Part shown: positions 6,375-63,000 of the stretch, in pieces
Layout of the letters: each line of letters opens with the position of its first letter
Position numbering within the stretch: the first letter of the stretch is position 1
NCBI GenBank assembly: GCA_052327205.1
Contig: CM126215.1
Coordinates: 95,604,001-95,668,000 of the forward strand
Length of the DNA stretch: 64,000 nucleotides
DNA from: Somniosus microcephalus
Taxonomy: Eukaryota
Direction of reading: 5' to 3'
Made by a program: the position numbers and the translations under genes
The notes under the pieces: model-generated
Seen by the model: the letters and a program-made list of their open reading frames with translations, nothing else
Told to the model about the DNA's origin: nothing
Database searches by the model: none

Positions 6375-8182
6375 CTGTTGGTGTTCTCGCCCGATTTCAG
6401 GTCCTGTTGGTGTTCTCGCCCGATTTCAGGTCCTGTTGGTGTTCTCGCCCGATTTCCGGTCCCATTGGTGTTCTCGCCCGATTTCAGGTCCTGTTGGTGT
6501 TCTCGCCCGATTTCAGGTCCCGTTAGTGTTCTCGCCCGATTTCCGGTCCCATTGGTGTTCTCGCCCGATTTCAGGTCCTGTTGGTGTTCTCGCCCGATTT
6601 CAGGTCCCGTTGGTGTTCTCGCCCGATTTCAGGTCCTGTTGGTGTTCTCGCCCGATTTCCGGTCCCGTTGGTGTTCTCGCCCGATTTCCGGTCCCGTTGG
6701 TGTTCTCGCCCGATTTCAGGTCCCGTTGGTGTTCTCGCCCGATTTCAGGTCCCGTTGGTGTTCTCGCCCGATTTCAGGTCCCGTTGGTGTTCTCGCCCGA
6801 TTTCAGGTCCTGTTGGTGTTCTCGCCCGATTTCAGGTCCCGTTGGTGTTCTCGCCCGATTTCAGGTCCTGTTGGTGTTCTCGCCCGATTTCAGGTCCCGT
6901 TGGTGTTCTCGCCCGATTTCAGGTCCCGTTGGTGTTCTCGCCCGATTTCAGGTCCCGTTGGTGTTCTCGCCCGATTTCAGGTCCCGTTGGTGTTCTCGCC
7001 CGATTTCAGGTCCCGTTGGTGTTCTCGCCCGATTTTCAGGTCCTGTTGGTGTTCTCGCCCGATTTCAGGTCCTGTTGGTGTTCTCGCCCGATTTCAGGTC
7101 CTGTTGGTGTTCTCGCCCGATTTTCAGGTCCTGTTGGTGTTCTCGCCCGATTTCAGGTCCTGTTGGTGTTCTCGCCCGATTTCAGGTCCTGTTGGTGTTC
7201 TCGCCCGATTTCAGGTCCTGTTGGTGTTCTCGCCCGATTTCAGGTCCTGTTGGTGTTCTCGCCCGATTTCAGGTCCTGTTGGTGTTCTCGCCCGATTTCA
7301 GGTCCTGTTGGTGTTCTCGCCCGATTTCAGGTCCCGTTGGTGTTCTCGCCCGATTTCAGGTCCCGTTAGTGTTCTCGCCCGATTTCAGGTCCCGTTGGTG
7401 TTCTCGCCCGATTTCAGGTCCCGTTGGTGTTCTCGCCCGATTTCAGGTTCCGTTGGTGTTCTCGCCCGATTTCAGGTCCCATTAGTGTTCTCGCCCGATT
7501 TCAGGTCCCGTTGGTGTTCTCGCCCGATTTCAGGTCCCGTTGGTGTTCTCGCCCGATTTCAGGTCCTGTTGGTGTTCTCGCCCGATTTCAGGTCCTGTTG
7601 GTGTTCTCGCCCGATTTCAGGTCCCGTTGGTGTTCTCGCCCGATTTCAGGTCCCGTTGGTGTTCTCGCCCGATTTCAGGTCCTGTTGGTGTTCTCGCCCG
7701 ATTTCAGGTCCTGTTGGTGTTCTCGCCCGATTTCAGGTCCTGTTGGTGTTCTCGCCCGATTTCAGGTCCTGTTGGTGTTCTCGCCCGATTTCAGGTCCCG
7801 TTGGTGTTCTCGCCCGATTTCAGGTCCCGTTGGTGTTCTCGCCCGATTTCAGGTCCCGTTGGTGTTCTCGCCCGATTTCAGGTCCTGTTGGTGTTCTCGC
7901 CCGATTTCAGGTCCCGTTGGTGTTCTCGCCCGATTTCAGGTCCCGTTGGTGTTCTCGCCCGATTTCAGGTTCCGTTGGTGTTCTCGCCCGATTTCAGGTC
8001 CCGTTGGTGTTCTCGCCCGATTTCAGGTCCCGTTGGTGTTCTCGCCCGATTTCAGGTCCCGTTGGTGTTCTCGCCCGATTTCAGGTCCCGTTGGTGTTCT
8101 CGCCCGATTTCAGGTCCCGTTGGTGTTCTCGCCCGATTTCAGGTCCTGTTGGTGTTCTCGCCTGATTTCAGGTGCTGTTGGT
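6375..8182. repeat. 29-bp minisatellite, ~62 copies
   Basis: Unit (t/c)gttggtgttctcgcccgatttcaggtcc repeated head-to-tail with no spacers; a few point variants and two 30-bp units. Confidence 0.98.
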
Positions 8183-9039
8183 CACACTATCGCTGCTCTG
8201 GAATAGGCGGACATGAAGGTAGAAGCTCCCCAACGGGTAAATTTCATGTTAGAATGCTTAATGTGCTTGTACTACATTCCTGTGTGGGCTGTTTTTATGC
8301 TGGTGTTAACTTGTTTAAAATAAGCAGGTTAGCATCTTTCCTAAAATAATGCTGGCCAGAATTTGGTGCTGGTACACTGAGCGTTTGTACCAAGCGATTG
8401 TAGATTGGAAAATCTACCCTGTACATCTTTGTCATTTAAGCCTAGAAAATACTGTAATGAACGTTTAATGCACTTGTATCATATTCCCTTTAGCTGCTTG
8501 TTTAATGGAATTTAAAATAATGCCTGCTTTAAAATAGTGGACAGACGAATGTCATCCAAATGCAGAGGTTTTTGTCTGCATCAGCAGTAGGTTCTGGACT
8601 TGAATTAAGAGAATACAAGGAAGTGAAGCCATCTTCTTTCTCATCAGGCTTCTTATAAAAATAATCAGTGAATCCATTGATCCCTGGTTAATGCTCATAG
8701 AAACTGGTCTGTGTAGCTTTGCTGCAAGCCCTTGTTCCAGCCCCAACAGTGAGGTTTCCTGGCTCCTTGCATGTGTTGTACATGGAGAAACACACAGTCA
8801 GCATATTCATATGTAAACAGAGTTGAAGTGATCAAAGTGCAAAGGACAATTAGTTGAGTGTTTTTCTTCCTTTAGCCTCTCATACTAGGGTTAACAGTGA
8901 TCTCTCAGTCCCAGGAGTCCATATGTAAACAGTAGGTTGAAATAGTAATTTCAGCGGTTTCAAGAGCCCGTAATGCATGCGTTCAGGGGTCCAGTCATTT
9001 TGCAGACAGTTTGACCGAGACAATCAAGATTTCACTATA

Positions 9040-14703: not shown

Positions 14704-15596
14704 TGTGACCGTGGTATATTTTCCGTCCTAAACCGCTCTGTCACTTTTCACAAGGTTGACCACATTATCCTCCTCCAACACCTCTCCAGGTTGTCCAGCT
14801 CAGTGGTACTACCTTTGCATGGTTCCACTCTTGCCTATCCAGTCGTAGCCAGAGCATCTCTTACCAGTGACTATTCTTTCCACCTTTGCTAATAACTACT
14901 GTCTGGAAAGAGCTCAATGTAGCTGGTGCTTGTTGATAACACCGTAACCTCTGTGCACCTGCCAGGCCAGCAAGATGCAATTTCCTTTATCTGTATAATA
15001 TCTGAAATGCATACCAGTCTGGAGTCATTAGCACTCATCCCTGTTGGTATCTTCCATGACAATGAGACCAAGGCCCCGATTTTCTGCCAGCCATCGGGCG
15101 GGTTTTCAGGCGGGCGGGGGCTGAAAATCGCCGAAATAGGGGGTCGTGACCCCCGCCCCCGCCTGATTCCCTGCCCCGTCCGACTTTTGGACCGCCGTTT
15201 CTCCGCGACCCGAATCAGTCCCGCCCGCCGCTGGCGGGACTGGCCATCGGAACACTAATCACCAATTATTACCATGTTTAAACCTATTTTCAGGGGCCGT
15301 TGCGATTTTGTGGCTTTCCCCACATAAAACACGCCTTGTGGGAACACCGCTGATGAAACCTGGCGTGAAAAGAGTTGGCTTGCTTGCCTTCAACTGCAGG
15401 TCAATCAGGACTGAATCAACAGGCAGCATTTGCAGGCTGCAGGACCTTGTTGCTGAAGGCTTGGGGGAACTTTTTGAAGGCTTAGGCACAGCTGTGGAAG
15501 GTTGGAGCCTCACACACTTCTCCAGTGTGAGCTCCTGGGAAGCCCCTTTCACCACCCTAACTCAGCGCCTCCTCAACGGAGGCATCTGCCAGAAGC

Positions 15597-16807
15597 ATGG
15601 GAGGCCTTTTGTACCTTCCCTTCCTGGCGTTAGAGGATCTCCAACAGCAGAGGAGGCTGGAGCAACTCCAGCAACAGCAACAGCATCACCAGCAACAACA
15701 GCAGCACCAGCAGGAGCGGCAGGCTGCGGCTCAGCCACCTGGGGCAGCACAGGCCAGAAGGGGCCAGCGCATGGAAGGCCGTCGACGCAGGAGATACCCC
15801 CCAAACAGGGTCTACAGACACAGGGTCAGCTACCTCAACATGACTGAGCAGCAGTGCCAGAGGCGGCTCCAACTTTCGCGAGAGGCTGTGACTGACATCT
15901 GCGCAATGCTGCAGCAAGACCTGGAGCCCAGAGCACCAGGTCCACACTACTTACCAGTGGCCATCAAAGTCACCACCGCACTCAGCTTTTATGCCTCAGG
16001 CTCCTTCCAGGAATCAGCAGCAGACATCAGCGGCATCTCCCAGGCGGCCGCACACACTTGCATCACGCAGGTAACCAATGCACTCTTTGCCCTCGCGCAC
16101 AATCACATCCATTTCACCAGGGATCGCGCAAGTGTGACGGCGCGAGCGCGTGGATTAGCTCAGCTGGCAGACTTTCCAAGGGTGCAATGCGTCATTGACT
16201 GCACACATGTGGCCCTTAGGACACCCCACCGCAATCCAGGAGTTTTTGTCAACCGCAAGGGCTTCCACTCCCTTAACGTTCAGCTGGTGTGTGACCACAA
16301 GAAGGTGATTTTGCATGTTTGTGCCAGGTTCCCTGGCAGCTGCCATGACTCCTTCATACTGCGCCAGTCTACTGTGCCTCCGCTATTCAGTCCGCCAAAC
16401 GAACTTCAAGGATGGCTGCTTGAAGACGAGGGATATCCCCTGAGGAGCGCTACAACTCCAGCCACATTACCACCAGATGCATTATCGAGCAAACCATCGG
16501 ATTGCTGAAGTTGCGCTTCAGATGCCTCGATAGATCAGGTGGAGCCCTACAGTACTCATCAGCCAGGGTCTCCAAAATCGTTGTGGTGTGCTGTGTGCTT
16601 CACAACATGGCACAGCGTCGTGGCTTGCCGATTCCGCAGAACCAAGCGGCTCCTCACAGAGCCGCCTCGGATGAGGATGATGCTGAGGAGGAGGAGGAGG
16701 ACGGAAACGAGCATCCTGCAGAGGCCCGCCAACCAGCGGCACCAGTGCGCGAGAACATTGCTGGGCGGAATGCAAGGAACGCACTCATCCTGGGCAGATT
16801 TGCGTAG
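15597..16807 (+). pseudogene. Harbinger DDE transposase (HARBI1-like nuclease family), frameshifted
   Basis: Motifs [61 protein letters not shown]; a deletion/frameshift near 16443 removes the WLxTP..P segment. Confidence 0.92.
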
Positions 16808-17195
16808 CCTGGTACATCAAACACTGCAGCCTCACTGCTTCTTAACTGACAGTGGCCCATCCCTACACTTTCCAACATCTTTGACCAGCTTGCTGTCATC
16901 TGCAAGTTATCCTAAGGCCTCTATGTGATATCCCCATTTGCCAAATGACAGACGCCATAACTGCAGCAGCTGCCACCAGATTTTTTATGTACAGGAAAAT
17001 GATGGCATTAAAACTATTTACAAGACTGGATGGTGGAATAGTTATGTGAATGTGAGCATAGAGAGCGACGGAATGGGTAAGGGTGCATGGATGTGACTGT
17101 GAAGTGGGATGTGGAGGAAGAGATTGCTGAAGCTGAGTGCTGTTGGGGAAAGGCAATGGGGATGAGGTTGAGGGTGATGGAAACGTCGTACTTGC

Positions 17196-17459
17196 TTTCC
17201 CTGTGCGGTGAAGGTCATGGAAGCGCTTCCTGCACTGCAGCCAGGTGCGATGGGTGACACCCAGAGAGTTTACCTCTGCTGCCACCTCCATCCAGGCAGC
17301 CGTGGACTCTTTGGGGGGCCTCTTCCTCCCTGAGCGAGGGTAGAGGACCTCCCTGTGGGCCCTTACCCCATCCACCAAGGTCTGCAGTGACGTCTCGGTG
17401 AATTTGGCCGCAGCTCGGCCTCTGCCGCTGGCAGCAGCTGGTGCAGGCTCCTCTGCCAT
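17196..17459 (-). pseudogene. Harbinger Myb/SANT-like DNA-binding gene, exon 1 only
   Basis: MAEEPAP...KFTETSLQTLVDGV...AWMEVAAEVNS...RTWLQCRKRFHDL is a trihelix/Myb_DNA-bind_5 pattern; followed by a GCAAGT donor-like site; downstream exons not found. Confidence 0.85.
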
Positions 17460-17883
17460 TGTGCAAGAGTGGTTGAGAAGCCTGCAGAGGTGGAGAAGCT
17501 TGCTGGACACTTTGAAAGCACCACGAATGATGACATCATACTGTGGGGCTTTCTGACTGGAAATGGACAATTAGCAAGGCTGCCCACACGCTGGAAATTA
17601 ATTGGCCACTTGAGGGAAAATTGCGTGCAGCTGGCTGACTTTTTTTTGTGGGTCAGAACCCCAGATTCGGGGAATCCGACCATTTCCCACACAATCCACA
17701 AAATCGGGCCCCAAATCTACAGAAAACGCATTCAAACGGAATGGGATTGTTTTGAACACAGTATGATCAACATTCAGTAGCTCACATCTGAATGTTTAAA
17801 TAGACATGTGTATGGATAATTCTGAGAATTTCTACTTTACAATGCTGTATAATTTAATCTTATTAGTCTCTTTAATTTTACAG

Positions 17884-24830: not shown

Positions 24831-26565
24831 TCTTAACCACATGTGACTAATTTGGAATCCAGATGTGGCTAGTTGCATTTTTGATTTGTAAATGAAAAAT
24901 GAGTAATAAACACCATCGTTGGGCGTGTGATCTCCATACTCATATTTGCACATCATATGCACATGTACTTTAGCCTTTTTGTGACTTTGTTGGTAAAATA
25001 GTAAGACGGAAAGCAGAGTGCAAGTGTCTTTTTGATAGTGTGTGTATTACTTCCTTGGTTACTGCTTATTGGTTATCTGCTAAAATGCTGTGTAACACGG
25101 GTGAAACAGCACCATGGGGACACCAGCAAGCTGTCAGGGAGGGCGGCTGGACCAATCGGAATAACCGCTCTAGGTAAGCCCAAGCAATAATGAGAAGCTC
25201 CAACAGGGCACATCATGGCAAAGGCCAAGCAGCATCCAACCATGATCTGGATGTAGAGCAGGCGTGGGTCTGGTGCGTCTCGTTATACGAGTCAACATTC
25301 TCAACAATCATTCTGATGAAGTCAAGAAACCGTTCACAACTGCTGGGCAAAAACATAGAAGCTTCACTAAGATGTGATGTGTTTGATACATTTTTGCCAG
25401 AATTCTGAACTTTGGTGAAAGAGAAACACTGCAAAATTTTGTACTGAAAGATGGTAGATGTTTCTTAAGTAAATATGCACGTGAAGTACGTTTGCCTGTA
25501 TTGTATGTAAGGCGTTTTATGCTAAAATGAGTGCATGTGGCTAAAATGGTGCCGCCACAGGTCGGTGATTTCTATCGGACAGCATTAGGATAAATCATCC
25601 AATGTGTGTGAGGCCCCAATGATGGTACAGGGCTTCGGAAAGTTACGCCTGTTTCTCTCTTCCAGCAATGGCCACTGCTTGCCCCCACGCTCTTTCGTTT
25701 TATCTCCCTCTTTGTCATTTACTCTTTCTGTTTCCCTCTTTGTCTCTGTGTGCTTCTCACATACTTGTTCTTGTTTTTCTGTATCTCTCTGTGTCCCTAT
25801 TCATTTTGAGAAAAAGAGGAGATTGTTTTTTAAACCCATACCTTAAATGGGGAGTAGAGCTAACTGGTTTTATTAACTGGCGTAATGTCAAAATACTGAA
25901 TGTGAAAGAAGTCAGATGGACATTCTCAGAGGAAGCCAGGCCCAATGAAGGGACACCCGCTCATCAAGCTCAGAATTAGTTGACCAGGAAAGGTTAAGTG
26001 AGCCTGCTAGTAGGGATAGTGTGTGAGAAAATGTTTTTTATCTTGCTCTCAAGGAGGCTTCTGTATTTAGTTGAATCAAGGTGAAATTTGATAATAATTG
26101 TTAACGCCATCCATTCACTTGCTGTCTATAAAATAAAGTAGCTTAAAGATTCATATTTGGCCTTGTCTCACTAAGTGTTTCAGTCTGCGGAAAGATTGGA
26201 GAAGTGTGCGAAATACATTGGGCTGAAATTTGCGCTCGGAGGCATACCTCCGGAGACGCCTGCGACCTGAAAAATAATCTGAAACTATCTGTTAGCTCCC
26301 GGGCTTCGGCGAGTTCGGGTCCCGGGCCTGCGGGCGTACGCCTGTGGAAAGGCCCAGGGACGCAGGCAGTTCGGAAGCTTCCCTGGAATCACGTGGACCA
26401 GGTCCTCCTATCAGAAAGGAGGATTCCATTGCTGTCATTTCCGAACCAAATCCCCTAATGACAAGAAATGGAATCCCCAAATAATTAAAGAATTTACACA
26501 ATTCTAATAAAAATAAATGTTCCCATTTTCACATTTAATTAAAAGTCTTTTTAATGAAGCATTTA

Positions 26566-27195
26566 CACTAGGGTTTATTTGTAGAGGGAATTCATTGAAA
26601 AGTAGTGACGGTATGCTAAACCTGTATCGAACCTTGGTTAGACCACACTTGGAGTACTGCGTACAATTCTGGTCGCCATATTATAAAAAGGATATAGAGG
26701 CACTGGAGAGGGTGCAGAGAAGATTTACAAGGGTGATACCAGAAATGCGAGGGTATACCAATCAGGAAAGGATGAACAGGCTGGGTCTCTTTTCTCTTGA
26801 AAGGAGAATCCTGAGGGGTGACCTAATAGAGGTCTTTAAAATTATGAAAGGTTTTAATAGAGTGGATACAGAGAGAATGTTTCCACTTGTAGGAAAGAGC
26901 AAAACTAGAGATCATCAATACAGGTATAAGATAGTCACCAAGAAATCCAATAGGCAATTCAGAAGGAACTTCTTTACCCAGAGAGTGGTGAGAATGTGGA
27001 ACTCGCTATCACAGGGAGTGGTTGAAGCGAATAGTATCGATGCATTTAAGGGGAGGCTGGATAAGCATATGAGGGAGAAGGGAATAGAGGGTTATGCTGA
27101 TAGTTAGATGAGGAAAGACAGGAGGAGGCTGGAGTGGAGCATAAACGCCAGCATGGACTGGTTGGGCCAAATGGCCTGTTTCTGTGCCATATAAA
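26566..27195 (+). mobile_element. CR1-clade LINE 3' fragment with open ORF2 C-terminus
   Basis: ORF 26517-27107: LYRTLVRPHLEYCVQFWSP...LRGDLIEVFKIM...FFTQRVVRMWNSL; CR1 3' hairpin gggccaaatggcc. Confidence 0.92.
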
Positions 27196-46319: not shown

Positions 46320-49300
46320 ATGGCAGATCCACGCCCTCATTCTGCGACCAAGCATTGGAGGTGTTGGTGTTTGCTGTGGAGAGACGGAGGGCGGTGCTCT
46401 ACCCGGCAAGTGGCAGGAGGCCCTCGCCACAAGTCTTCCGCACCACGTGGAGAGAGGTAACGTAGCATGTCTCGGGCACTGTGGTCCCCAGGACCCGCAC
46501 ACAGTGCAGGAAGAAATTTAACTACCTCACTTAGGTGGTCAGGGTGAGTGAATGCTTCAACAAATGCTACATACCACTTTCTGAATCACAGTCTTCACTC
46601 ACTGCCCAAAACACCACACCACCAGCACTCGCCCACCAACAATCTCTACCTACCAACACTCACACCCACATTTCACACCTTGCACACAATGACAACTATT
46701 CAACTATGGCCGGCACATCACCCAAATACACAGGGGAATATTCTGGGGGCTCAGCGGACGCAATCGGTGGTGGGTCGGGTGGGAAAATGTTTTTTTTCCC
46801 CCACAGCGGGTCAGGACCCCGCTGCCACATGCCTTTCCCAAATGTCGGGTCTGTCAGCGCTGAGCAGACCCAACACGCAGCAGCGGGGGAGGCAATTAAG
46901 GTCATTATGACCTTGTTAACAGAGCATTAAGAACTATTTTCAGCTCATCTTCAGAGTTTACCAGGTCGCCCACAGGGTCCACGCTGCTCGGGAATCACGT
47001 CGGGTAAGCAGGGCAGGAGTTGAATGGCCATGGAATCATCTCTCTACTTCACAGCTGCAAATGTGCTATAAAAGCTCCCATCTCACAGCTGTTCACTTTC
47101 CAAGCTCAAAAGCTGTTGCTTACTGCATTTGGAAGACAGATTGAGCTTTATGAAGGTGGCAAGTGTTTGGAGCAAGCTCTCTATCCAGTGTCACCTCATT
47201 GGAACAACCTCTCTCACCATTGACAGATTGCTTCTGTCATCTCTTCCATCAGTATCAGTGCCCTTGAAACTAGCTCACCTTGGTCCTCAGAATCCCACCA
47301 CGATCAGCACCAAGCACACCAGAAGCACCAACAACAACACCACCCTTCTCCGCAATCACCTGATGCTGAACAGAGCGCACGGCATCAGCACCCGACCACA
47401 TTGCTGCCCGGGAGGCCAGGGATGGCCTCACCATGGCCAGATTTACTTCACTTGAAGCTATACACCCTGGCTGCCACATGATGCACCAGGTTGGTACCAA
47501 CACCATAAAGCATCCCTACAATGCCCAAGCCATTCCTTTCACACTCATCACCATTGCGTTATGTCTCACCATTCACTACAACTCACTAAGTAACTTCCAA
47601 AGGTGCACACACATCTGTCCAACAATGCAAAGTGTTGAAAATAAAGGTTTCAATGTTTGACAGTACATTAACAAAAACTTTACATGGACATTGCATAAAA
47701 CACCCAAATGGCTACCCTGTGTGTTGTTAGTTGGTATGATTGCACTAGGATGAGGGTGAGTGTGAGGGGTGGCTAGTGAGATGGGGAAGTTATAATGTAG
47801 ATAGCGAGGGATGGGTGGAGGTTTACGGTAAGTTGGTGTAAGACTGTGCAGGAGTAGGGTAGGGAAGGAAGAGTGATGGGGATGTGATGAATGGCATAGC
47901 AGGATGAGGTTGAGTGTGGCTTTGTACCAACATTTTGTGATCATCTGAGATTATTGAAAGGTTTCTGCCACTGCAGTCTGGTCCTCCTGACGACCGCCCT
48001 GCTTGTGTCCTGTGCAATGTGCAACGAGGCTGCGTTGGTCTCCTGGGGAGATCTCTTCCGCCCATTGGAAGAGAAGAGAACCTCCCTGCATGCTGTGACT
48101 CCCTTCATAAGCATATGGAGGGAGTCCTGGGAGAGCCTGGGTGCAGCCGTCCACCTCTGCAGTGCTTGTCAGTGTTTGCAGCACCTCAATGCTGTAGAAC
48201 ACTGACAACACAAATGTCAAAATTAATTTGCGCACGGTCCCTTTAAGGAAACCAGCAGACCCGCTTCCTTCAATTGGCCGGCAAACACGCTAGGCGGGCT
48301 TAGCCAGCCCAATATGGAGGAAATCATTTTGGACTGCGGACTGAAGCTGGCAGCGAGGCTGGGACCCGCCACCGACATGCCGAGGTTGGTAAAATCCAGC
48401 CCATTGCTCCACACTCACACACACTTTCCTTTCTCTTGCAGGCCAAGGTGGCTCTCAACAGGAGGGAGCAGGAGTGCACAGGCGGGGGACAAGCCAAAAT
48501 CCAATCGCCATCTGCGCTGGAGAATAGAGTGCTGCAGATTATTTTGCGCCAGGTGGTGGGCACCATGGCCACCGGTGACGTTGACCCCCTTGAGGACAAC
48601 AACAGCATGTTCATCCCTACTCCTTCTTGCATCCCACTTCCCCCTCACTCCACAAGTGTTTTGCAATTTCCAGCTAATCATGCTGTATGCATGCATTTCT
48701 CCCTTTCTGCCCTGTCCCCTCACCTTAACCCGACTCTTGTGCCTTTATGCTTTCAGATAATGTGCAAGCAGCTGAGCAGCCTGTCCCTGATGGCACCGCA
48801 GAGTGAGGTGGGAGAAGAGGAGGACAAAGAACACACCACGTCACTGCATATCTCACCTGCAGGCACCAGCTCAGATACTGGCACTACGCGTTCTTTAGAG
48901 GCCAGTATAGTAGCGGGAAATGCACAGGGTGAGGCACCGGGGACGAGTGGGCCGCAGCAAGGCCAGGGGGAAAGGGTAGTTCGGGGGCCAGCTCCCCAGA
49001 GGGCAAGTTCGCGCATGAGTTCTGCTGCACAGGACTCAGATGAGGACCTTGATGGGGAGGCATTTAGAAGAAGGGTGATGGACAGGCACATGGAGATGCT
49101 AGGTGCAATGGCAAGGATGAGGAGTGTGGAGGAGTCCACCATCAACATTGCACAGAGCTCTGCGCACACCACAGAGCCCATCATTTCCAGTCTGCAAAGG
49201 ATGGTGGACTCCCAAAGAGACCGTGGCGACCCAGACCTGATGCCGTGTGTGATGGACGATCTGGCAACTTCCATTGCAGCACAGGCGGAAACGACACCAT

Positions 49301-49841
49301 GTCTTAGAGCTGTAATGCAGTCTATGCTTGGTGGCATCCAATCTCAGACTGCTCTCATGCGGTCTCAGCTTGATGCCACGCAAGCTATGACTGCTGCCAT
49401 CGTGGCTGGGTCTACCACTGTCGACCGGGGCTTTCACGGTGTCGCAGCAGGCCAGCAGTCTGTGTTCCAACAGTTTGCTAGGGATGCTGAGGGTGCTGCC
49501 CTGGGGAAGTGGCAGTGGGTCAGTGGAGCAGGAACCTGCTGTCCTCTCTCAGGATAACAGCAGTCCTGCTCCCACCACTGCCACTCCCACTCCCACATTG
49601 CACTTGTCGCTGCCCGTCATCCAGCCAGCCCAGACTGCTGCCGCCCATGCTGCGGTGGTGCAGACTACAGCTGGGCCTTCCAGGCCCAGAGCTGATTGAG
49701 GGCATCTTGCAAGTCCATCTGAAGTCTCCTGCACGGCCACTCCGCAGCCTTCCACAAGCCCTGCTGCAGTCACTGGACCAACACCTCATAGGAGCACTAG
49801 AGTAGGCAAAGGCACAGTAACGAGAGGCACAAAGGTGAATA
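46320..49841 (+). pseudogene. Harbinger Myb/SANT gene relic, 3 exons (~46320-46543, 48442-~48606, 48757-~49841)
   Basis: Exon 1 ..ALEVLVFAVERRRAVLYP...RTRTQCRKKFN..|gtgagt; exon 2 ttgcag|AKVALNRREQECTGGG; stops and frameshifts present. Confidence 0.75.
46733..48402 (-). mobile_element. Non-autonomous Harbinger derivative nested in intron 1 of the Myb gene
   Basis: Right end aaaatccagccc; carries a minus-strand Myb exon-1 relic (~47930-48190); 47185-48260 is colinear with 59846-60073 + 63109-63990. Confidence 0.72.
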
Positions 49842-51837: not shown

Positions 51838-53559
51838 CTGCACTGGTAATTATTTTAACATTAGAATTAGCATAGGGAATGCTCATATAGCAGGGTTTGT
51901 CCCACTTACCTGCCAAAACCTCAGCAAAAGAGCTGCGGAAACCACAGAACAAGCGCACGCACAGTGTTTACACCATTTTTCCAGAGTTTCCACAGCTCTT
52001 TCTCCGAAGTAACAGTGGATGAATGGGAGAACCCCCATGGAAACTGATCCCCAGGTTACAATGGAGCGTGAGGCTCATGTGAGAATTTGAGTATCTTGTA
52101 GATAATGATTATTCTCATCAACATTGCCAAAGACTCATTAAAGAACCAGCAGGGGAAGGAAATTCTATTGTGAGGCTTTTGAAATGAGTGGGATCCCAAT
52201 TCCTCAAGCTGAAACAGATATGTGTTCTCTGTGAGTTGTTGAAGAAAGAGAGGATAGGTATATAACAGAATATATTATCTAACAGGAACTATCACTCAGT
52301 TTCTAAGCTACGTTTTCAGTGTTAGTTCTTTTCTTTAGGTTATTCAAGTATTTTATATATTTTGATTACTGGCATACCAGAGAAGTGATTCGAGAAACCA
52401 CTGGACTGTACAGCAAATGCTATCTCCACATGAAGCTAAAACGCCCAATAATAGAAAAATTGTAAGGAAAGAATATAGCATTGGTATTGTTGAATGAAGC
52501 TTGTTTCTGTTACATCCAATGTGATAACTATCAGCAGAGATGCATTCCTCTTTGACAGCCTCCATTTGAGTCCCGGCTAGAAAATCTACATTCATTGATT
52601 GTGTGGCTGGATTTCCAATGAAATTATATCATCGGAACAGGCATGAACCAACAGTTACTACTTTACTATTGACTGTGATTAATTGACGATTTCAACACAA
52701 CATTGTGTTGCATTCAACAAGCCCAATTCAATGAAAATGAGGTGTGAATCCTATTTATTCCCATTGATGCAAAGCTGTAAGGATGATCAAAGGTTCCTAT
52801 CTCTGATTAGATTCTGTATGCAGGAATTCTATTCAAGCTCACTCCAGAACTGTAAGAAAGGAGGACTTGCATTTATCAAACATCTTTCATGTCCTCAAGA
52901 CTTCCAAAAGCAGTTAAAAACCAACAAATTACTTTTGAAGTGCGGTCACAGTTGTTTCGTGGACCTTGCTTTAACATGTCATCTGAAGGACAATGCCCCT
53001 GATAATATTACATTACGTCAGCTTAGAGTAATGGCTCAAAATCCTGGTAGGGAGCTCAAATCCACAATCTTCTGTTCCACAGATGAGACTATGGAAAGAA
53101 AGGAAGACTTACATTTATATAGCGCCTTTCACGGCCACCGGACGTCTCAAAGCGCTTTACAGCCAATTGTTGTGTATGTAACCTGTTCCACCTTAAGAGA
53201 GCTTAAGCCTGTTCCACCTTAAGAGATGTACTACTTTCTCAGGCTGCTGTAGACGTAATACCGGGGGTGAACACACCGGTATATAAGCACTGTGCAGTAA
53301 TCTTGTATTCAGTATAGTCCCTACCTCCAACCAGTAAAGACCTGTTTTTATTGTTACTCATTAGTCTGTGTCTTAATTAACTAAATAATTCACAGACTTA
53401 ACACTGGCGACGAGTCAGGTTCTTACCCTGCGGCAGTTATTCCACGGCGGTTGAAGAGAGGTTTCAAACCACACCACCCCACTGGAAGCGACAGGCATTA
53501 GGACCCTGAAGCCTCCATCAGCTTGTGAACCGGAGTAGAAGACAGGGCTGGGGAAGACA

Positions 53560-53905
53560 GAGGTACAGGGCGCTAGCGATCGGCAGATAAGGGCCGGGCC
53601 GCTTTGAAGTGAGGGGCGCAGCCGGGCCATCGATCGCAACCACCGATAAGGGCCGCACTCGGGCTGAAAGGGCAGCGGCTGCAGAAATTGAAGGCGCGAG
53701 AGCCGCGGTGCACAGCGCGGGCCATCGATCGCGATCGGGAGATAAGGGCTTTGGAGTGCGAGGCGCAGCCGGGCCATCGATCGCAAGCACTGATAAGGGC
53801 CGGGCCGCTTTCAAGTGCGAGGCGCAGCCGGGCCATCGATCGCATCCGCTGATAAGGGCCGCACTCGGGCGATCGCGGCGAAGATAAGGGCCGCACTCGG
53901 GGGCT
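53560..53905 (+). repeat. GC-rich modular tandem repeats in the LTR element leader
   Basis: Six 'gataaggg' and four 'ggccatcgatcgc' modules. Confidence 0.85.
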
Positions 53906-54052
53906 GAAGGGAGACGGCGTCGGGGGACGGGTGAAGACCGCCAAGCGTGGGAAAACCGCCATTTTGTGGGCGGAGGACGACGGCAAGAGTGGGAAGCCGC
54001 CATCTTTGATAACAAGTAAAGAAAATAAAATCTGAGAAATTGCAAATCTACA

Positions 54053-56360
54053 ATGCCTAAACACGGGAACATTAGCACCTTTGATAGTGACCTCGAAGAT
54101 TGGGCCATATATGTTGAAAGAGTAAAAAATTATTGTAAGGCCAATAAAATTCGTGACCAAGATAAAGCTCTAACATTATTAAATTTAATGGGTGCGAAGA
54201 CATACGGGCAATTGAAACACCTGTTATCACCAGATGAACCAGCGGATAAGACGTTCGATGAGATTGTTACTGTCCTGAAAGATCATCTAAACCCCACGCC
54301 GCTGATGCTAGCGGAACGATTTAAATTTTACGACAGAAGGCAGCTACAGCATGAAAGCAATGCTGAATATTTGCTGGAATTGCGTAAATTAGCGAAATAT
54401 TGCCAGTTTGGAACGGGACTGACAGATGCACTATGAGACAAATTTGTGTGTGGTTTATTTAAACAGGATACACAAAAGCGACTGCTCGAGGAGAATGAGC
54501 TGACGCTTGAGAAGGCGGTCACTATGGCAGCAGCACACGAAGCCGCAGCGAGAGGCACGGCAGTAATGCAGCTACGGTCACCGGAGCTCAGTGCACACAA
54601 ATTGGGTGTGAGTTCTGTTAAATGTTATCGTTGTGGAAAGACAACGCATGATCAGAACCAGTGTTGGTTTAAAAACCAAGAATGCAGAACATGTGGTAAG
54701 CTTGGACATATAGCTAGAGTATGCAGGTCAGGGAAGAAGACCAGCAACAAGAAGTCACCGCAAGGGAAATACGCAAAGGTACACAAGGTGGCCGAACAGG
54801 AGTCCGATTCAGACGCTAGCAGTAATGAACTGGCTGGCTTAAGCAGTATTGAACTGGCTAGCTTAAGGGTACTCAACGTTGGTAAGGGTGCAGACCTCCA
54901 GACAATTTGGGTTACTCTTCAGATAGAAGGAGTCCAAGTAAAAATGGAATTGGACACTGGATCGGCATTGTCGGTCATGAATAAGAAAGATTACAGAAGG
55001 TTATTCCAACATATTCCCCTACAGGATACGGAGATTATATTGACAACCTACACGGGGCAGAGAGTGTACCCCATCGGGACAATAAAGGTTGCAGTGGCCA
55101 ACAAGGGCGAAGGAAGTCAAATAATGGACTTATATGTGCTACCGGAGGGAGGTCCACCACTACTAGGCCGGGAGTGGTTTAGAAACATAAATATGGACTG
55201 GCATTCGCTAAAAGCCATAAAGAGTGAGAACTCGGTGCAGATAATCAGCCCAGACTCTAGAACTGATGATGATAAGACCAACCCATGTGCAAAAGACAAA
55301 GTTTCAGCACAGAATTCCACTGAGCAACAACAACATAGTTTAACAGAGAATTCTGAGTCTGTCAAGTCTACTGATATGCACATTTTTGAGGGACACTGGG
55401 CTCGAACTCAACTCCATTTCAAACTACAACAGCAATTAGAACAAATGATTCGCCGTTTTGAGCAAGAGATGAATGAAATAAAAAAAGTTCTTTGTTACAG
55501 AGTGGGAGAATCTGGAAAGGCAACAGAAGCAACTGATGGAGAAAATGGAGCAGGAGCACACCAACCATCTGCGCGAGGAGGCCGAACAAATCAAAGCTGA
55601 TTCAGGTTCTGAAGGTGCGTGCCATAATCTGGTGTCAGAAGAGTTAACGGTCAGCCAACTCCTTCATATGCTGAGGGACAAGACTCTGAAATGGGAAAAA
55701 CTTGAACACGAGCTGCGATCTTCAAAGGAAAAGGGTTCGGAGCTCTCAAAAGTCGTTGAGATGGCTGATGTGACGACACAGACTGAAACGACTGCAACAG
55801 AGCAGCCATTGGATGCCAAAAGTACGCTGACTCACGTCAATGTAGAACAACAGACCGCTGAAACAGCTGCTCCGGTAGAGGGATTGCATAGTCCGATCAA
55901 TCAATCTCCAAAGGAAGTTGAAGTATTAAAATCACAAATGAGGTCACTAGTAAACGACTTGCTGAAAGCCCAGAAAAAGCTGGATGCAGAGGTACACATG
56001 AAGAAGTCTCTTCAGGAAAGATGTCTGGATTTGGAACAAGAGCTGGCTAACATCCAGCTGGGTATGGAGGAAATAGACGACCCTCTCACTGGTCTAGCTC
56101 AGGACGACACCGAATATTACCATGACCTGGTGGACGACACCGAATATTACGATGTCCTGTCCTGCCCAGCTTGTAACTTCGACTCCCAAAGTGCAGAAAT
56201 CATGGAGGAGCACCAAAAGTCTACGGAACATCGGGAGAAGCTGGCTCTACGACGGAAACAGGAGGAAGAGAAGGAGGAACTGCGCATGCAGGTGGCAGCT
56301 GACAATGGAGCCCAGAGAGTCTCCAAGAAGCAGAAAAGGAAAAGTAAAAACAGAAGATGA
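54053..56360 (+). pseudogene. Gag-protease-[STK10/SLK]-[optineurin]-[DNAJC21-like ZnF] chimeric ORF, broken by one stop (54434-54436) and one +1 insertion (A7 run 55480-55486)
   Basis: Gag ERFKFYDRRQ / DAL*DKFVCG, two CX2CX4HX4C knuckles, protease LDTGS, then coiled-coil segments resembling host proteins; no RT (YxDD), RNase H or integrase core. Confidence 0.85.
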
Positions 56361-57994
56361 CCCATCTGAACCATTATCACCTCTACCAGATCACACACGT
56401 GGTCCCTCCGAACGGAGCCAAATCAGTTCGGAAGTTCAAGCTGTTAAATCCATGAAAGGACTATTGAATGAGTAACGTGAACCGACTACACCACAGAGAT
56501 TGAATCTGTGAACTGTTTTCCGCAGAGACTGAATCTGTGATATGTTACGTTAAACATGAAGTTATATATGTATATATGTTATTACGTTATGTTAAATGGG
56601 GGGATGACTATAAAGCTAAGAAGGGAGGAGTGTTGTGTATGTAACCTGTTCCACCTTAAGAGAGCTTAAGCCTGTTCCACCTTAAGAGATGTACTACTTT
56701 CTCAGGCTGCTGTAGACGTAATACCGGGGGTGAACACACCGGTATATAAGCACTGTGCAGTAATCTTGTATTCAGTATAGTCCCTACCTCCAACCAGTAA
56801 AGACCTGTTTTTATTGTTACTCATTAGTCTGTGTCTTAATTAACTAAATAATTCACAGACTTAACACCAATGAAGTACTTTTGGAGTTCAGTCACTGTTG
56901 TAATGTGGGAAACGTGGCAGCCAATTTGCGCACAGCAATCTCCCACAAACAGCAATGTGATAATGACCAGATAATCTGTTTTTGTTATGTTGATTGAGGG
57001 ATAAATATTGGCCAGGACACCGGGGATAACTCCCCTGCTCTTCTTCGAAATAGTGCCCTGGGATCTTTTACGTCCACCTGAGAGCGCAGACGTTTAACGC
57101 CTCACCCGAAAGACGGTACCTCCGATAGTGTAGCATTCCCTCAGCACTGCACTGGAGTGTCAGCCTAGATTTATGTGCTCAAGTCCCTGGAGTGGGGGCT
57201 TTCTGACTCAGAGACGAGAGTGCTACCAACTGAGCCACAGCTGACACTAAGCTGTGATTAAGCTGTCGTGAATTTACTTGGAAAGTGTATTAACCACTCT
57301 TTGTGTGATGTGATTAGCTTAAGGTTATTACTGGGAAATAACTCAGTTGTCAATCAAAAAGATCATTAACAATAGCCCAGAAGCAGAACACCCACCCACC
57401 TCTTGGCTGCAGAGTCATGAGGTGTGGAAAGACCAGTGAGGGGATTACAGGAGGAAAGGCTTCACAGGTGTATGTCCTTTATGAAAGGATAAATAACTCT
57501 AGATAAAAATGCTAAATGTCTACCCATGATATATCATGATTTGCCTTTCCTATCATGTCCCTTTTTTTGTGTTGGATTGATTTTTCTACTCCTGGCTCTC
57601 TTAATGCTTGTTTATCCCCTCTTTATTTATCCATCCTCCTACTTGGCTCTTGTTGTGACATTGAGTCGAAATAAAAGTTTAAGTACCAGTGCCGATCTTG
57701 TTAAAATTCTCAGCTGTTCCTGCCATTTTTTTGCAGTCGCTTATGAGCTCAGGGGAGTGGGCTTTGGGCTTGTGTGCTGTCACCCCACGGTAGACAGTGC
57801 TGAAAGTTATTTAAAGGAAGCCCAGCTGTGTGATTCCTCCAGCCGGTGAACTTCAGGGTTTGGCTCATTACATTCCCGACTCTGACACAGGATAGCAGAG
57901 AGTCAGATGGAAACCATGTAAGAGAAAGACGGTCACTGTGCAAAAGCTACCAGAAGAACAAATGGGCCAAAAATAAGAAAAGCATAATTCACTA

Positions 57995-58359: not shown

Positions 58360-59245
58360 CTATATTGTCAGACTCTAAATTATCAGACTGCTTGTCTGAC
58401 ATCCACTATTGGGTGTGCAGAAATTTCCTCCAATTAAATATTGGGAAGACCAAAGTCTTCGGTCCCTACCACAAACTCCATCCCTCTCCCTAACATCTGT
58501 CTGAGGCTGAACCAGACTGTTCGCAACCTTGGTGTCATATTTGACCCTGAAATGAGCTTCCGACCACATATCCATGCCATAACTATGACCGCCTATTTCC
58601 ACCTCTAACATCACCCGTCTCTGCCCCTGCCTCAGCTCATCTGCTGCTGAAACACTCATCCATGCCTTTGTTACCTCTAGACTTGACTATTCCAACGCAC
58701 TCCTGGCTGGCCTCCCATGTGCTACCCTATGTAAATTTGAGGTCATCCAAATCTCGACTACCGGTTTCCTAACTCGCACCAAGTCCTGTTCACACATCAC
58801 CCCTGTACTCGCTGACCTACATTGGAACCCAGTTAAGCAATGTCTCGATTTAAAAATTCTCATCCTTGTTTTCAAATCCCTCCATGGCATCCTCGCCCCT
58901 CCCTATCTCTCTAATCTCCTCCAGCCACACAACCCCCCGAGATATCTGCGCTCCTCTAATTCTGCCCTCTTGAACAGCCCTGATTTTAATCGCTCAACCA
59001 TTGGTGGCCGTTCTTTCAGCTACCTAGGCCTTAAGCTCTGGAATTCCCTCCCTAAACCTCTCCACCTCTCTTTCCTCCTTTTAAGATGCTCTTTAAAATC
59101 TACCTCTTTGACCAAGCTTTTGGTCATCTGCTCTAATTTCTCCTTATGTGGCTCAGCATCAAATTTTGTTTTATAATGCTCCTGTGAAGCGCCTTGGGAT
59201 GCTTTACTATGTTAAAGGCGCTATATAAATAGAAGTTGTTATATA
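58360..59245 (+). mobile_element. L2-clade LINE 3' fragment
   Basis: Same family as 960-2079 and 20245-21195. Confidence 0.9.
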
Positions 59246-60073: not shown

Positions 60074-63000
60074 ATAAAAACATAAGAAATAGGAGCAGGA
60101 GCAGGCCATTCGGCCCCTCGCGCCTGCTCCGCCATTCAATGAGATCATGGCTGATCCGATTTTGGCCTCAACTCCACTTTCCTGCCCGCTCCCCATAACC
60201 CTTTAGTCCCCTGTTGCTCAAAAATCTGTTTATCTCAGCCTTGAATATATTCAATGACTCAGCTTCCACAGCCCTCTGGGGTAAAGAATTCCAAAGATTC
60301 ACAACCCTCTGAGAGAAGAAATTCTTCCTCATCTCCGTCTTAAATGGGCGACCCCTTATTCTGAGATTATGTCCCCTCGTTCTAGATCCCCCCACGAGGG
60401 GAAACATCCTCTCAGCATCTACCCTGTCCAACCCCCTCGGAATCTTATATGTTTTAATAAGATCACCTCTCATTCTTCTAAACTCCAATGACTATAGCCC
60501 CAACCTGCTCAACCTTTCCTCATAAGACAAGCCTTCCAACCCAGGAATCAACCTAGTGAACCTTCTCTGAACTGCCTCCAATGCAAGTATATCCCTCCTT
60601 AAATAAGGAGACCAAAACTGTACGCCGTACTCTAGGTGTGGTCTCACCAGCGCCCTGTACAGTTGTAACAAGACTTCCCTCCTTTTATACTCTATCCCCC
60701 TTGAAATAAAGGCCAACATTCCATTTGCCTTCCACATTACGTGCTGCACCTGCATGTTAACTTTTTGTGTTTCATGTATGAGGACACCCAAATCCCTCTG
60801 TACCGCCGCATTCTGTAGTCTTTCTCCATTTAAATAATATTTTTCTTTTCTATTCTTCCTACCAAAGTGGATAACTTCACATTTTCCCACATTATACTCC
60901 ATCTGCCAAATTCTTGCCCACTCACTTAACCTGTCGATATCCCTTTGCAGACTCTTTGGGCTGGATTTTCTGAATGGGAGGCGGGACTGCTGCTTGCTGG
61001 GTTTCAGTCCCGCTTCCATCAGCTTCTGGCCAACCAGCGGGAATTTCCCCTGATTGACCTTGGTAAGCCCGCCTGCCGGGCTCAGCAGGCCAATTAGGGG
61101 GAAGTCAGTGACAGAGCACGTCAACGTATGACGTGTCATCTGTCAAGAACTTTTGAAAGAAGAAATGTCATCGTTGTGAAGCTGTCAAACACTGACATTC
61201 TGTGTCGTTTGATGAGTCCTTGTGTTCAGGACTGATCAAACCTTTCTACTCTGCAGAAATCAGCTGGCTGTTGTATCGGAGGATGCAACAGCAAGTCTGT
61301 GATCTCTACAATGGAGATGTTGGGGACTCCGTCTCCACAGCGGCTGAAGGCTGTAGGTAGAAACAAAGGTAAGTTAACATTTTCTAACACTTTACACTCA
61401 CCTCACATACTTACCACTCCACACTTGCACCCATCACTCACCTCTACATCTCACTTTCAGACCCCGCAGACCCCACACAGACCTCTCACTTGCCTCCTAC
61501 AACCCGGTGGGGTTCCCCCAGGTCGGGAAGCCCGCACTTCAGCACAAAAAATGGGGATAATCCTATTTTCTGCCTGTTAACTACCTGTTAACAGACAGTT
61601 AATAGGCTTTAATCCCTTCCCGCCTCCAAGGAGATGGGACCCAGGGCAGGACGGCTTCCTGCCTCCTGGCAAGAGGGCATGGAGGCGGGTTGGGGGCGGG
61701 TTTGCCACCCACCCCCAAATTCTGCAACTTTCCCAGCAGTCCCACCTCCATACCTGCCTCCTCTGGGCTAAGAAAATCCAGCCCTTTATGTCCTCCTCAC
61801 AACTTGCTTTCCCACCTATCTTTGTATCATCAGCAAATTTGGCTACAGTACACTCGATCCCTTCATCCAAGTCATTAATATTGATTGTAAATAGTTGAGG
61901 CCCCAGCACTGATCCCTGTGGTACCCCACTAGTTACAGATTACCATCCTGAAAATGACTCATTTATCCCGACTCTGTTTTCTGTTAGTTAGCCAATCCTC
62001 TATCCAATCTAATATATTACCTCCAACACTATGAGCTCTTATCTTATACAGTAACCTTTTATGTGGCACCTTGTCGAATGCCTTTTGGAAATCCAAATAC
62101 ACTACATCTACTGTTTCCCCTTTATCCACCCTGCTCATTACCTCCTCAAAGAACTCTAGTAAATTTGTCAAACACGATTTCCCTTTCATAAATCCATGTT
62201 GACTCTGCTTGATTGTATTATGATTTTCTAAATGCCCTGCTACTACTTCATTAATAATGGATTCCAGCATTTTGCCAATGACAGATGTTAGGCTAACTGG
62301 TCTATAGTTTCCTGCTTTCTGTCTCCCTCCTTTTTTGAATAAGAGTATTAAATTTAAATAAAAGCAATTACAAAGGTATGAGGAGAGAGTTGGCTAAAGT
62401 GGACTGGGAAAACAGATTAGAAGGTGAGGCGGTAGAAAAGCAGTGGCAGACATTTAAAGAGACATTTCACGACTCTCAACAAAGATATATTTCAGTGAGA
62501 AAGAAAGACTCGAAGAGAAGGATGAACCAACCATGGCTAACCAAGGAAGTTAAGGATGGTATCAAATTGAAAGAAAAGGCAAACAATGTTGCAAAGATTA
62601 GTGGTAGGCCAGAAGATTGGGAAAATGTTAGAAACCAGCAAAGGATGACTAAAAACATAATAAAGAGGGAGAAAATAGCTTATGAGAGTAAACTAGCAAG
62701 AAATATAAAAACTGACAGTAAGAGCTTCTACAAGTATATAAAAAAGAAGAGAGTAGCTAAAGTAAACATTGGTCCCTTAGAGGACAAGCCTGGGGAAATA
62801 ATAATGGATACAAGGAAATGGAAGAAGCATTGAACAAATATTTTGTATCTGTCTTCACAGTAGAGGACACTAAAAACATCCCGGTAGTAGTAGAAAATCA
62901 AGGGGCAAAAGGGAGGGAGGAACTTAAAACAATCACTATCACTAGAGAAAAAGTGCTAGGCAAACTTATGGGTCTAAAGGCTGACTTGATGGCCTGCATC

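Follow-up and report, generated by a model that had tools for sequence, protein, structure and literature searches.

Architecture of the element

We analysed a window of 64,000 nucleotides from Somniosus microcephalus, in which positions 53168-56866 are occupied by one copy of a non-autonomous Gypsy-type element whose Gag-protease is fused in frame to pieces of the host genes STK10, optineurin (OPTN) and DNAJC21. Its parts, in window positions, are as follows.

53163-53167 and 56867-56871, no strand: left and right copies of a 5-bp target-site duplication
53168-53403, + strand: 5' LTR of 236 bp, starting with TG and ending with CA, 100% match to the 3' LTR
53405-53414, + strand: primer-binding-like site; sister subfamilies carry the identical 10-mer after the LTR
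53586-53870, + strand: imperfect, GC-rich direct repeats in the leader
54053-54910, + strand: gag, with a capsid-like part, two CCHC knuckles (~54620-54727) and an in-frame stop (54434-54436)
54911-55220, + strand: aspartic protease, D-T-G intact
55221-55398 (about), + strand: middle part of STK10 exon 9, with an in-frame deletion inside
55388-55600, + strand: 3' part of STK10 exon 11 spliced to exon 12 (joint ~55475); PKK coiled coil; frameshift in an A-run (55480-55486)
55601-56075, + strand: optineurin; remnant of ~aa 133-144, a 258-nt in-frame deletion, then aa 228-384; host exon start ~56021
56076-56360, + strand: DNAJC21-derived C2H2 finger region and basic tail; finger diverged; 30-nt duplication (56102-56159); stop 56358-56360
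56352-56472, + strand: end of STK10 exon 8 spliced to the start of exon 9 (joint 56379/56380); ends at the putative circle-opening point
56618-56630, + strand: polypurine tract
56631-56866, + strand: 3' LTR, identical to the 5' LTR over 236 bp

The initial annotation had described an LTR-PBS-gag-protease-PPT-LTR structure devoid of reverse transcriptase (RT), RNase H and integrase, and the identical LTRs, the 5-bp duplication and the Pfam results bear this out: in the four window pieces scanned, Pfam recognized a zinc knuckle and the aspartic protease, and no RT, RNase H or integrase. The primer may be a serine tRNA; a tRNA scan returned none. The element is presumably Mag-like. Its gag-protease, placed in a tree of 10 rows, is 52% identical over 419 aligned columns to fish Gypsy polyproteins. 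Like the element, those named 'K02A2.6-like' or 'Gypsy retrotransposon integrase-like' (P0059, P0070, P0162) have a single gag-pol frame with two CCHC knuckles, but they run on into RT, whereas here host cargo follows the protease.

The cargo matched specific shark proteins rather than only generic coiled coils: STK10 with 75% identity over 77 aa, OPTN with 70% over 157 aligned columns (best E 3e-47), and DNAJC21 with 55% over 42 aa, at a database E of 1e-3 the weakest of these matches. Thus, all three donors named initially stand, except that SLK, proposed beside STK10 as the kinase donor, is ruled out by the match of the pieces to this genome's own STK10 exons (86-95% DNA identity). The inventory itself was too short, since STK10 also contributes 55221-55398 and 56352-56472, and sister subfamilies use more donors. 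The latter STK10 piece lies behind the stop and is untranslated in the window copy, but it is translated in subfamilies B and C. The OPTN cargo contains one exon-exon joint. A candidate exon-exon joint for DNAJC21 is one genomic match with an AG directly before codons that are uninterrupted in the elements; a guessed donor site gave 0 matches.

Copy number and integrity

The initial annotation had proposed a genome-wide search for sibling copies, and the window subfamily turned out to have about 1,740 near-identical ones (1,743 genomic matches of a junction motif). Among 33 copies fetched, 32 have their own matching target duplication, 13 have identical LTRs, and 19 keep a single open frame of about 770 residues, the remaining 14 being broken. 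The proposed in-frame polyprotein of ~768 aa is thus found as natural open frames of 768-771 aa, although the window copy is itself broken twice, by the stop in gag, which had not been noted initially, and by the A-run frameshift. These two breaks recur (the stop in 4/32 copies and the frameshifted run in 8/31), so broken copies may also spread. A 215-aa version exists without most of gag, the protease and most of the cargo. Matches ending at query base 2768 had suggested a separate subfamily with another 3' end, but the 13 loci fetched are full-length siblings.

Of the 21 public runs listed, ten (3 organism labels, 4 studies) contain 45-77% of the element's sampled words. The family is transcribed: its RNA was abundant and strand-biased in one of two raw RNA runs, while the second had no steady strand bias for it. 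In the protein collection, no chimeric proteins were found among the 52 and 120 matches listed (lengths 424-1,700 aa).

Circular permutation of the STK10 exons

In the founder, the STK10 exons are ordered 9 (3' part)-10-11-12-8-9 (5' part), a circular permutation that is in frame and one turn long. The exon-12 donor is joined exactly to the exon-8 acceptor, as in a back-splice, at 1,144 places in relatives of the window copy. In the window copy this joint is gone, replaced by OPTN, and only the permuted order remains. Both ends of the joint coincide with host splice sites. An acceptor with a polypyrimidine tract and AG lies directly 5' of the exon-8 codons of host STK10, and the donor that follows the exon-12 codons matches the genome only once, 6.5 kb downstream. 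The intron-flanked ends of exon 8 and exon 12 occur once each in the assembly, and a 31-aa alternative exon marks the exon-12 boundary in all four shark isoform pairs.

The length of the captured STK10 sequence was measured in copies that retain the undeleted exon-9 stretch, which has 84 genomic matches, one being host STK10 and 83 element copies. Exons 8-12 sum to 1,245 nt, which predicts that two markers lie 976 nt apart; their spacing was 976, 976, 976, 970 and 970 nt in the five copies, out of seven, for which both were listed. In length, the measured copies agree with precisely one turn around a circle of exons 8-12 of 1,245 nt. In one undeleted copy, exons 9, 10, 11 and 12 are spliced together with 97.6-100% identity, and across the family there are four forward STK10 exon-exon joints. 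No STK10 sequence from outside exons 8-12 was matched in the element proteins and loci compared. Our literature search found no publication on circSTK10.

Parent family and switch points

A linker of the putative parent family has 12,913 matches in the genome, and the one parent copy fetched carries RT, RNase H and an integrase zinc domain in Gypsy order. At the exit joint, parent and STK10 share a 12-nt word, no longer one being shared between parent pol (2,077 nt) and the exons of the circle, and the parent tail has 7-8 nt in common with the same host STK10 site. In the derived elements, intronless host exons replace the internal ORF between the two LTRs. From these joints, we infer that the STK10 turn replaced the parent RT-RNase H-integrase by microhomology-guided template switches.

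The window type carries the cassette on a different gag-protease-LTR backbone. Its identity to subfamily B rises from ~70-80% to ~90% near 55130-55190, the point of cassette transfer. A search for a pol-bearing partner with the window-type backbone found none: with other sequence behind it, the protease-end motif had two matches, both damaged cargo joints; the backbone's protease motif has 1,848 matches as against 1,743 cargo joints.

Exchange of cargo and selection

Later subfamilies gained pieces of DNAJC21, CGNL1, OPTN, the EVI5 family and the ankycorbin/ANKRD24 family, mostly coiled coils, and descendants shortened the cargo in frame; the order of these gains and deletions can be tentatively reconstructed from joints common to subfamilies. 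Subfamily B has a longer OPTN stretch (aa 133-384), and in subfamily C the OPTN slot is occupied by CGNL1. Around the OPTN, DNAJC21, CGNL1 and EVI5 joints, comparison at the protein level gave only short shared peptide words. By composition, the STK10 exon 9 and DNAJC21 stretches are not coiled coils. The cargo of a natural open copy is predicted to form four long helices; a PDB sequence search with the cargo gave no matches, and the EVI5-like piece matched only generic coiled-coil clusters in the ESM Atlas.

Gag-protease is under strong constraint (dN/dS 0.15-0.18), unlike the cargo, which is weakly constrained. Within the cargo, OPTN gave 0.38-0.44 (p 0.003-0.03 over four non-independent pairs; tree test p 0.017). 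For STK10 alone constraint is not significant (0.48-0.83, p 0.09-0.63, tree p 0.66), nor is it for DNAJC21, whose ratio of 1.4-2.1 is raised by a local compensated frameshift. Pooled STK10 and OPTN changes were 30 nonsynonymous to 22 synonymous when subfamily-wide and 40 to 9 when private (p 0.010), although the subfamily-wide ratio of 1.4 is only modestly below the neutral 1.8-2.8. Host-versus-element dN/dS values (0.39-0.62) were excluded because some alignment rows overran joints.

Origin of the family and role of the cargo

Comparison of these sequences makes it probable that we are dealing with a selfish, helper-dependent Ty3/Gypsy-type family which was founded by an STK10 circular RNA and went on to gain in-frame host pieces. 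Copies would encode their own Gag-protease-cargo polyprotein and package their RNA with it, RT and integrase being supplied by pol-bearing relatives.

What the cargo does is a more tentative matter. The leading candidate, at a little short of an even chance, is a generic in-frame coiled-coil extension rather than a mimic of a single host protein. Such an extension may, for example, take over from RT/integrase the role of oligomerising so that the protease is activated; a leucine zipper adjoining HIV protease has been reported to enhance protease activation (PMC5899837). With the same origin, the cargo could instead be a frame-keeping spacer, selection acting on an open frame that reaches a stop near the 3' end. 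The benefit might be that the RNA avoids the decay to which a long 3' end exposes it, or might lie in RNA length or a basic C-terminal tail, and coiled-coil donors would dominate via purine-rich codons that give in-frame microhomology. We regard this as a real possibility, still below even probability: cargo is swapped and deleted freely, the 215-aa version does without most of it, the STK10 and DNAJC21 parts are not significantly constrained, and the basic tails come from different sources in different subfamilies; against it, OPTN by itself and STK10 pooled with OPTN test below neutrality, and long helical donors recur, from five genes. The fullest version of the extension reading is that one circRNA turn was taken into the polyprotein and radiated into thousands of elements, that coiled coils of at least five unrelated host genes were repeatedly selected as interchangeable oligomerising modules replacing RT/integrase, and that the cassette moves between backbones; this we offer only tentatively, as possible but rather doubtful in its entirety.

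The founding step can be stated with more assurance. Very probably, a back-spliced circular RNA of STK10 was co-packaged into a particle of the parent and reverse-transcribed for one turn. RT would have jumped onto the circle at a short common word, copied it once and switched back to the parent template through the 12-nt word, which lies at the STK10 site of entry. The serial capture of spliced RNA by template switching that was first proposed is thus supported by the exon joints in STK10 and OPTN, while the founding RNA looks circular rather than a linear mRNA. A linear RNA with a non-colinear joint, arising by intragenic trans-splicing or from a since-lost exon duplication, would give the same order, as would extra template jumps involving normal mRNA that hit both splice sites by chance. 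Back-splicing can indeed be mimicked by trans-splicing (PMC10450196), the circle is deduced from sequence, and microhomology alone could have brought RT in and out at a single place. Since the two parent joints are similar to one and the same STK10 site, a length of one turn does not by itself tell a circle apart from a linear RNA made by trans-splicing. However, both ends are exact splice sites whose intron-flanked forms occur once each in the assembly, the elements examined carry no STK10 sequence outside exons 8-12, and the length is one turn, so that we consider a linear origin unlikely.

A further suggestion was that the cargo acts as a decoy directed at autophagy or at interferon signalling in the host. 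Of all cargo pieces, OPTN is under the most constraint, and its aa 133-384 in subfamily B include a motif that we take to be an LC3-interacting region. But the captured aa 228-384 of a shark OPTN leave out the NEMO-type domain (aa 44-111) on one side and the CC2-LZ and zinc-finger domains (aa 449-621) on the other, the STK10 kinase domain is absent from the cargo, the presumed LC3 motif is deleted in the window subfamily, and CGNL1 takes the OPTN slot in subfamily C; the decoy reading is therefore improbable. A domesticated chimeric host gene (open frames and transcripts are present) or an assembly artefact, a chimera having been considered initially, is largely refuted and extremely improbable in view of the 1,743 dispersed copies, the own target duplications in 32/33, the identical LTRs in 13/33 and the presence in independent runs.

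Comparison with known systems

Acutely transforming retroviruses are likewise replication-defective and helper-dependent, and their Gag is fused to coding sequence acquired from the host (gag-onc). In the present family, however, no env or infectious stage was seen, the cargo lacks catalytic domains, and the elements are heritable, multi-gene and present in thousands of copies.

In the initial annotation, no description of such a family was known. LTR gene capture and circRNA pseudogenes are already known, but our literature search found no description of a circRNA captured in frame and then amplified as a modular family. Maize Bs1 is also an LTR element with three host-gene segments in one chimeric frame (PMC13317346, PMC7264820, PMC5131818), and secondary retroposition with common switch points is likewise reported for it. 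Bs1 has 1-5 copies per Zea genome (PMC5131818), as against 1,100-1,900 for single subfamilies here, and the text available on Bs1 mentions neither an origin from circular RNA nor a swap of backbones or an exchange of cargo among subfamilies. In the LTR-mediated retrocopies of animals (Tan et al. 2016, PMC5131818), spliced host RNA similarly replaces the internal ORF via microsimilarity switches, comparable to the shared words of 12 and 7-8 nt where the founding switches are placed here, and several donors and further rounds as non-autonomous elements are also reported. Those retrocopies have few copies each, with no mention of circRNA or in-frame fusion in the text available, whereas here Gag-protease is constrained and cargo-fused across the whole radiation.

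The circRNA-derived pseudogenes of Dong et al. (2016, PMC4897178) share a genomic non-colinear exon joint, circle exons only and no poly(A), and the 33 mouse circRFWD2 copies have LTR-rich flanks. These are described as pseudogenes, their mechanism being left open; here an LTR element carries the putative circle in frame, and the parent and both switch points can be identified. The family may therefore provide a concrete mechanism for writing circRNA back into DNA, with parent, switch points and intermediates in one genome. The proposed capture fits the report that retroviral Gag packages host circRNAs (bioRxiv 10.64898/2026.01.21.700838).

The family also preserves a stepwise record of exon shuffling within a vertebrate retroelement that is active, on a far larger scale than in Bs1, and its thousands of copies make selection on the cargo as a protein directly testable. 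In practical terms, annotation of STK10, OPTN, DNAJC21 and CGNL1 and RNA-seq mapping to them in these fishes would be confounded by the elements.

Window element and its family

The LTR retrotransposon at window 53168-56866 belongs to a young, real family. Its two LTRs of 236 bp are identical, the target duplication measures 5 bp, and both a primer-binding-like site and a purine tract are present; it encodes a Gag with two CCHC knuckles followed by an aspartic protease. No RT, RNase H or integrase was found in the element, and the cargo of host-gene pieces stands in their place, as the initial annotation had observed. The window copy is broken twice:

54434-54436, stop codon
55480-55486, A-run containing a frameshift

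In a DNA search of the genome with the element, the best 40 of 4,722 candidates were scored and 33 were fetched, window copy included, a sample skewed to window-like copies. In this sample, 32 of 33 copies have their own matching target duplication, LTR pairs are identical in 13 and have at most four mismatches in 31, and 19 retain a single uninterrupted frame of about 770 aa. A junction motif of subfamily A, the window type, occurs 1,743 times in the genome, and 45-77% of sampled words of the element are present in 10 of 21 listed public runs (3 organism labels, 4 studies).

Host donors of the cargo

A natural open copy used as protein query matched shark optineurins and STK10s (best 52 of 4,932 candidates) and three DNAJC21s (best 3 of 220 candidates; top E 1e-3).

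Host stretches matched by the cargo
STK10: aa 399-479 and 616-692 (protein comparison)
OPTN: aa 228-384 (70% identity)
DNAJC21: aa 313-360 and 440-455 (protein comparison)

Among relatives that have diverged less, identity of the DNAJC21 finger is 74% over 35 aa. The window STK10 pieces are 86-95% identical to the exons of the same genome's own STK10 and are joined at GT/AG edges, one joint of the OPTN piece coincides with a host acceptor, and a possible DNAJC21 joint is suggested by one genomic match with AG directly before the corresponding codons. The three donors named at the outset are specific matches, with STK10 and not SLK as the kinase. The proposed capture of spliced host RNA is partly supported, by the STK10 exons and the one OPTN joint, and extends to a founding RNA that was most likely circular and to a radiation of subfamilies.

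Probable founding on a circular STK10 RNA

In subfamily C, a sister of the window type, STK10 runs from aa 389 to 704 and then from 291 to 388. The end at aa 704 is an exon end, where a 31-aa alternative exon begins in 4 of 4 isoform pairs, and the exon 12 end with its donor has a single genomic match. The start at aa 291 is an exon start; of its three pattern matches, one is the host acceptor, lying 6.5 kb upstream, and the others are elements that hold the back-splice joint (exon 12 donor to exon 8 acceptor) without other cargo. This joint occurs 1,144 times in the genome. Exons 8-12, whose numbers we take to follow the human gene, total 135+675+131+124+180 = 1,245 nt, which is divisible by three. 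An exon 9 stretch deleted in most subfamilies has 84 matches, one being the host; its predicted distance to the 3' joint for one full turn is 976 nt, and 976, 976, 976, 970 and 970 nt were observed in the five copies with both markers, of seven in the listed range. One fetched copy piece contains STK10 exons 9, 10, 11 and 12 spliced together (97.6-100% identity), and in founder-type copies, the STK10-only stage, cargo start and cargo end lie at the same host site, overlapping by about 11-14 nt. From these joints and spacings, the family was most likely founded on one turn of circular RNA. A trans-spliced linear RNA would give the same appearance.

The linker 3' of the protease runs on into pol in 12,913 places, which mark the parent family. 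The single parent-family copy fetched encodes RT, RNase H and an integrase zinc domain, and several of the copies listed have about 2.66 kb between their linker and pol-tail markers. A 12-nt word is common to the linker and to the host site of exit from the circle, and no longer word is shared between the circle exons and 2,077 nt of pol; such a word somewhere has a chance of about 0.15, which is not rare, and its weight rests on its location at the joint. This host site also matches the pol tail over 7-8 nt. The two words keep the host reading frame, so the fusion would have been open from the outset. RT would have entered STK10 RNA at the pol-tail word and copied backwards across the back-splice joint until it met the template end left by its own earlier degradation; from there it would have switched to the linker word, returning to the parent template.

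Later steps and sister subfamilies

Shared joints suggest the order of the subsequent steps. STK10 would first have lost an in-frame stretch reaching from exon 9 into exon 11. DNAJC21, together with a short duplication, would then have entered exon 8, before CGNL1 was placed in exon 12 (subfamily C) or OPTN across the back-splice (subfamily B). The window type would afterwards have lost 69 nt and 258 nt in frame and gained 30 nt, and its frame end would have moved into the DNAJC21 basic tail, leaving the last STK10 piece untranslated.

Between subfamilies A and B, dS is 0.9-1.5 in gag-protease and only 0.14-0.28 in the cargo, with a step near window 55130-55190, and the LTRs are about 73% alike: the cassette has moved onto another backbone. 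Motif searches of the genome found no pol-bearing family with the window backbone. The two backbones resemble each other in their LTR ends and primer site, so it is plausible that the parent family supplies help. In loci L035 and L036, protease dS against L041 is 0.38 and gag dS 0.04-0.09, which points to an additional recombination with another backbone.

A genome search with DNAJC21 gave at least 81 scored loci, most with long open frames, of which eight were fetched. Six are subfamily B (STK10, OPTN 133-384, DNAJC21, a second STK10 piece, pol-like tail); the frame is open over 960-969 aa in five of them and broken in the sixth. Another is the subfamily C copy (L039 1577-4489), where CGNL1 takes the OPTN slot: its 970-aa open frame has a CGNL1 coiled coil (91% to one shark CGNL1) within STK10 exon 12 and retains the back-splice joint and DNAJC21. 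The eighth, L037, is a short 2.7-kb derivative whose 215-aa frame (3650-4297) fuses the gag N-terminus directly to the OPTN end and DNAJC21. A further subfamily was traced from a loose read end (marker motif, 1,894 matches). Here STK10 and OPTN are separated by coiled coils of the EVI5/EVI5L and ankycorbin/ANKRD24 families (L052, G000:C1:9056480-9057930); in the one copy seen, the frame changes within the EVI5 piece. The three subfamily markers together would represent ~4,800 copies, provided they do not co-occur in one copy. Long open frames matching OPTN past aa 384 (G000:C22:20007973, C9:146663718, C9:83049760 and others) suggest more subfamilies with longer OPTN pieces. The Arg/Lys-rich C-termini of P0001, L034, L037, L040 and L048 have differing origins (modified pol end, DNAJC21, frameshift), in contrast to the native pol end retained by a founder-stage copy. 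RNA reads have consistent loose ends at window 55475, 55997, 56026 and 56473, pointing to additional cargo variants.

Selection and expression

Selection tests took in open-frame copies only. In codon models of A versus B, dN/dS of gag-protease is 0.15-0.18, which argues that Gag-protease is made and matters. The values are 0.38-0.44 for OPTN (p 0.003-0.03, four non-independent pairs), and 0.48-0.83 for STK10 and 1.4-2.1 for DNAJC21, both non-significant; tree tests against neutrality gave p 0.017 for OPTN, 0.66 for STK10 and 0.47 for DNAJC21. STK10 and OPTN changes are 30 N:22 S when subfamily-wide versus 40 N:9 S when private (p 0.010), and the neutral N:S expected for the OPTN piece is 1.8-2.8. 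Cargo constraint appears weak at most.

Two RNA runs, of 16.7 million and 14.4 million records, place 10,864 and 11,331 of them, respectively, on window 52900-57100, flanking repeats included; these reads are not assignable to the window copy, and their organism label (B) need not equal Somniosus microcephalus. First mates on the minus strand correspond to sense RNA in most stranded libraries, and in one run they are several- to over thirty-fold more frequent across the frame; the second has no steady strand bias there. At both window breaks, most reads have the uninterrupted form.

What the cargo may do

A single-sequence model (mean pLDDT 65.5) predicts that the cargo of one natural copy forms four long helices. 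We favour, tentatively and at somewhat under even chances, a generic coiled-coil extension useful to the element, which might bring proteases together in place of RT. In HIV, protease is reported to be triggered by Gag-Pol dimerisation (PMC11998509) and enhanced by an added leucine zipper (PMC5899837). Nearly as likely, the cargo is merely a frame-keeping spacer. The optineurin or host-pathway decoy of the initial annotation is improbable, since the captured OPTN excludes the NEMO-type, CC2-LZ and zinc-finger domains, the STK10 kinase is excluded, and CGNL1 fits the same slot.

Relation to known systems

Earlier work describes LTR-mediated capture through microsimilarity, along with chimeras of several genes and secondary copies (PMC5131818), and maize Bs1, with three donors and 1-5 copies (PMC13317346, PMC7264820, PMC5131818). 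circRNA-derived pseudogenes are reported to have LTR-rich flanks, their mechanism left open (PMC4897178, whose supplements may bear on placement inside LTR elements), and circRNAs to be packaged by retroviral Gag (bioRxiv 10.64898/2026.01.21.700838). Like Bs1, the window family works as LTR transduction; unlike Bs1 as described there, it is modular, multi-thousand-copy and founded most likely on one circular-RNA turn. A search of an open-access library turned up neither this family nor an LTR element that had taken up a circRNA in frame. What is new is a Bs1-type transduction that was most likely founded on circular RNA and has grown into a modular family of several thousand copies.

Other observations

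Further features of the window are listed here; the resemblances are putative.

15561-17570 and 48304-49557, open frames with a putative resemblance to a Harbinger-type transposase and its partner proteins
6265-8349, a short unit repeated in tandem over about 2 kb, with several frames open
1343-1966, 26517-27107, 58589-59176 and 60492-61142, fragments that we take to resemble LINE reverse-transcriptase C-termini
52900-53167 and 56867-57100, surroundings of the element, a very high-copy repeat; reads of the repeat skip the element, which does not demonstrate insertion polymorphism

Outside the window, the integrase of the parent-family copy (L051 2100-3201) is interrupted by an integrase-like fragment on the opposite strand, and in host STK10 (L050) the intron 3' of exon 10 seems to begin with GC, not GT.
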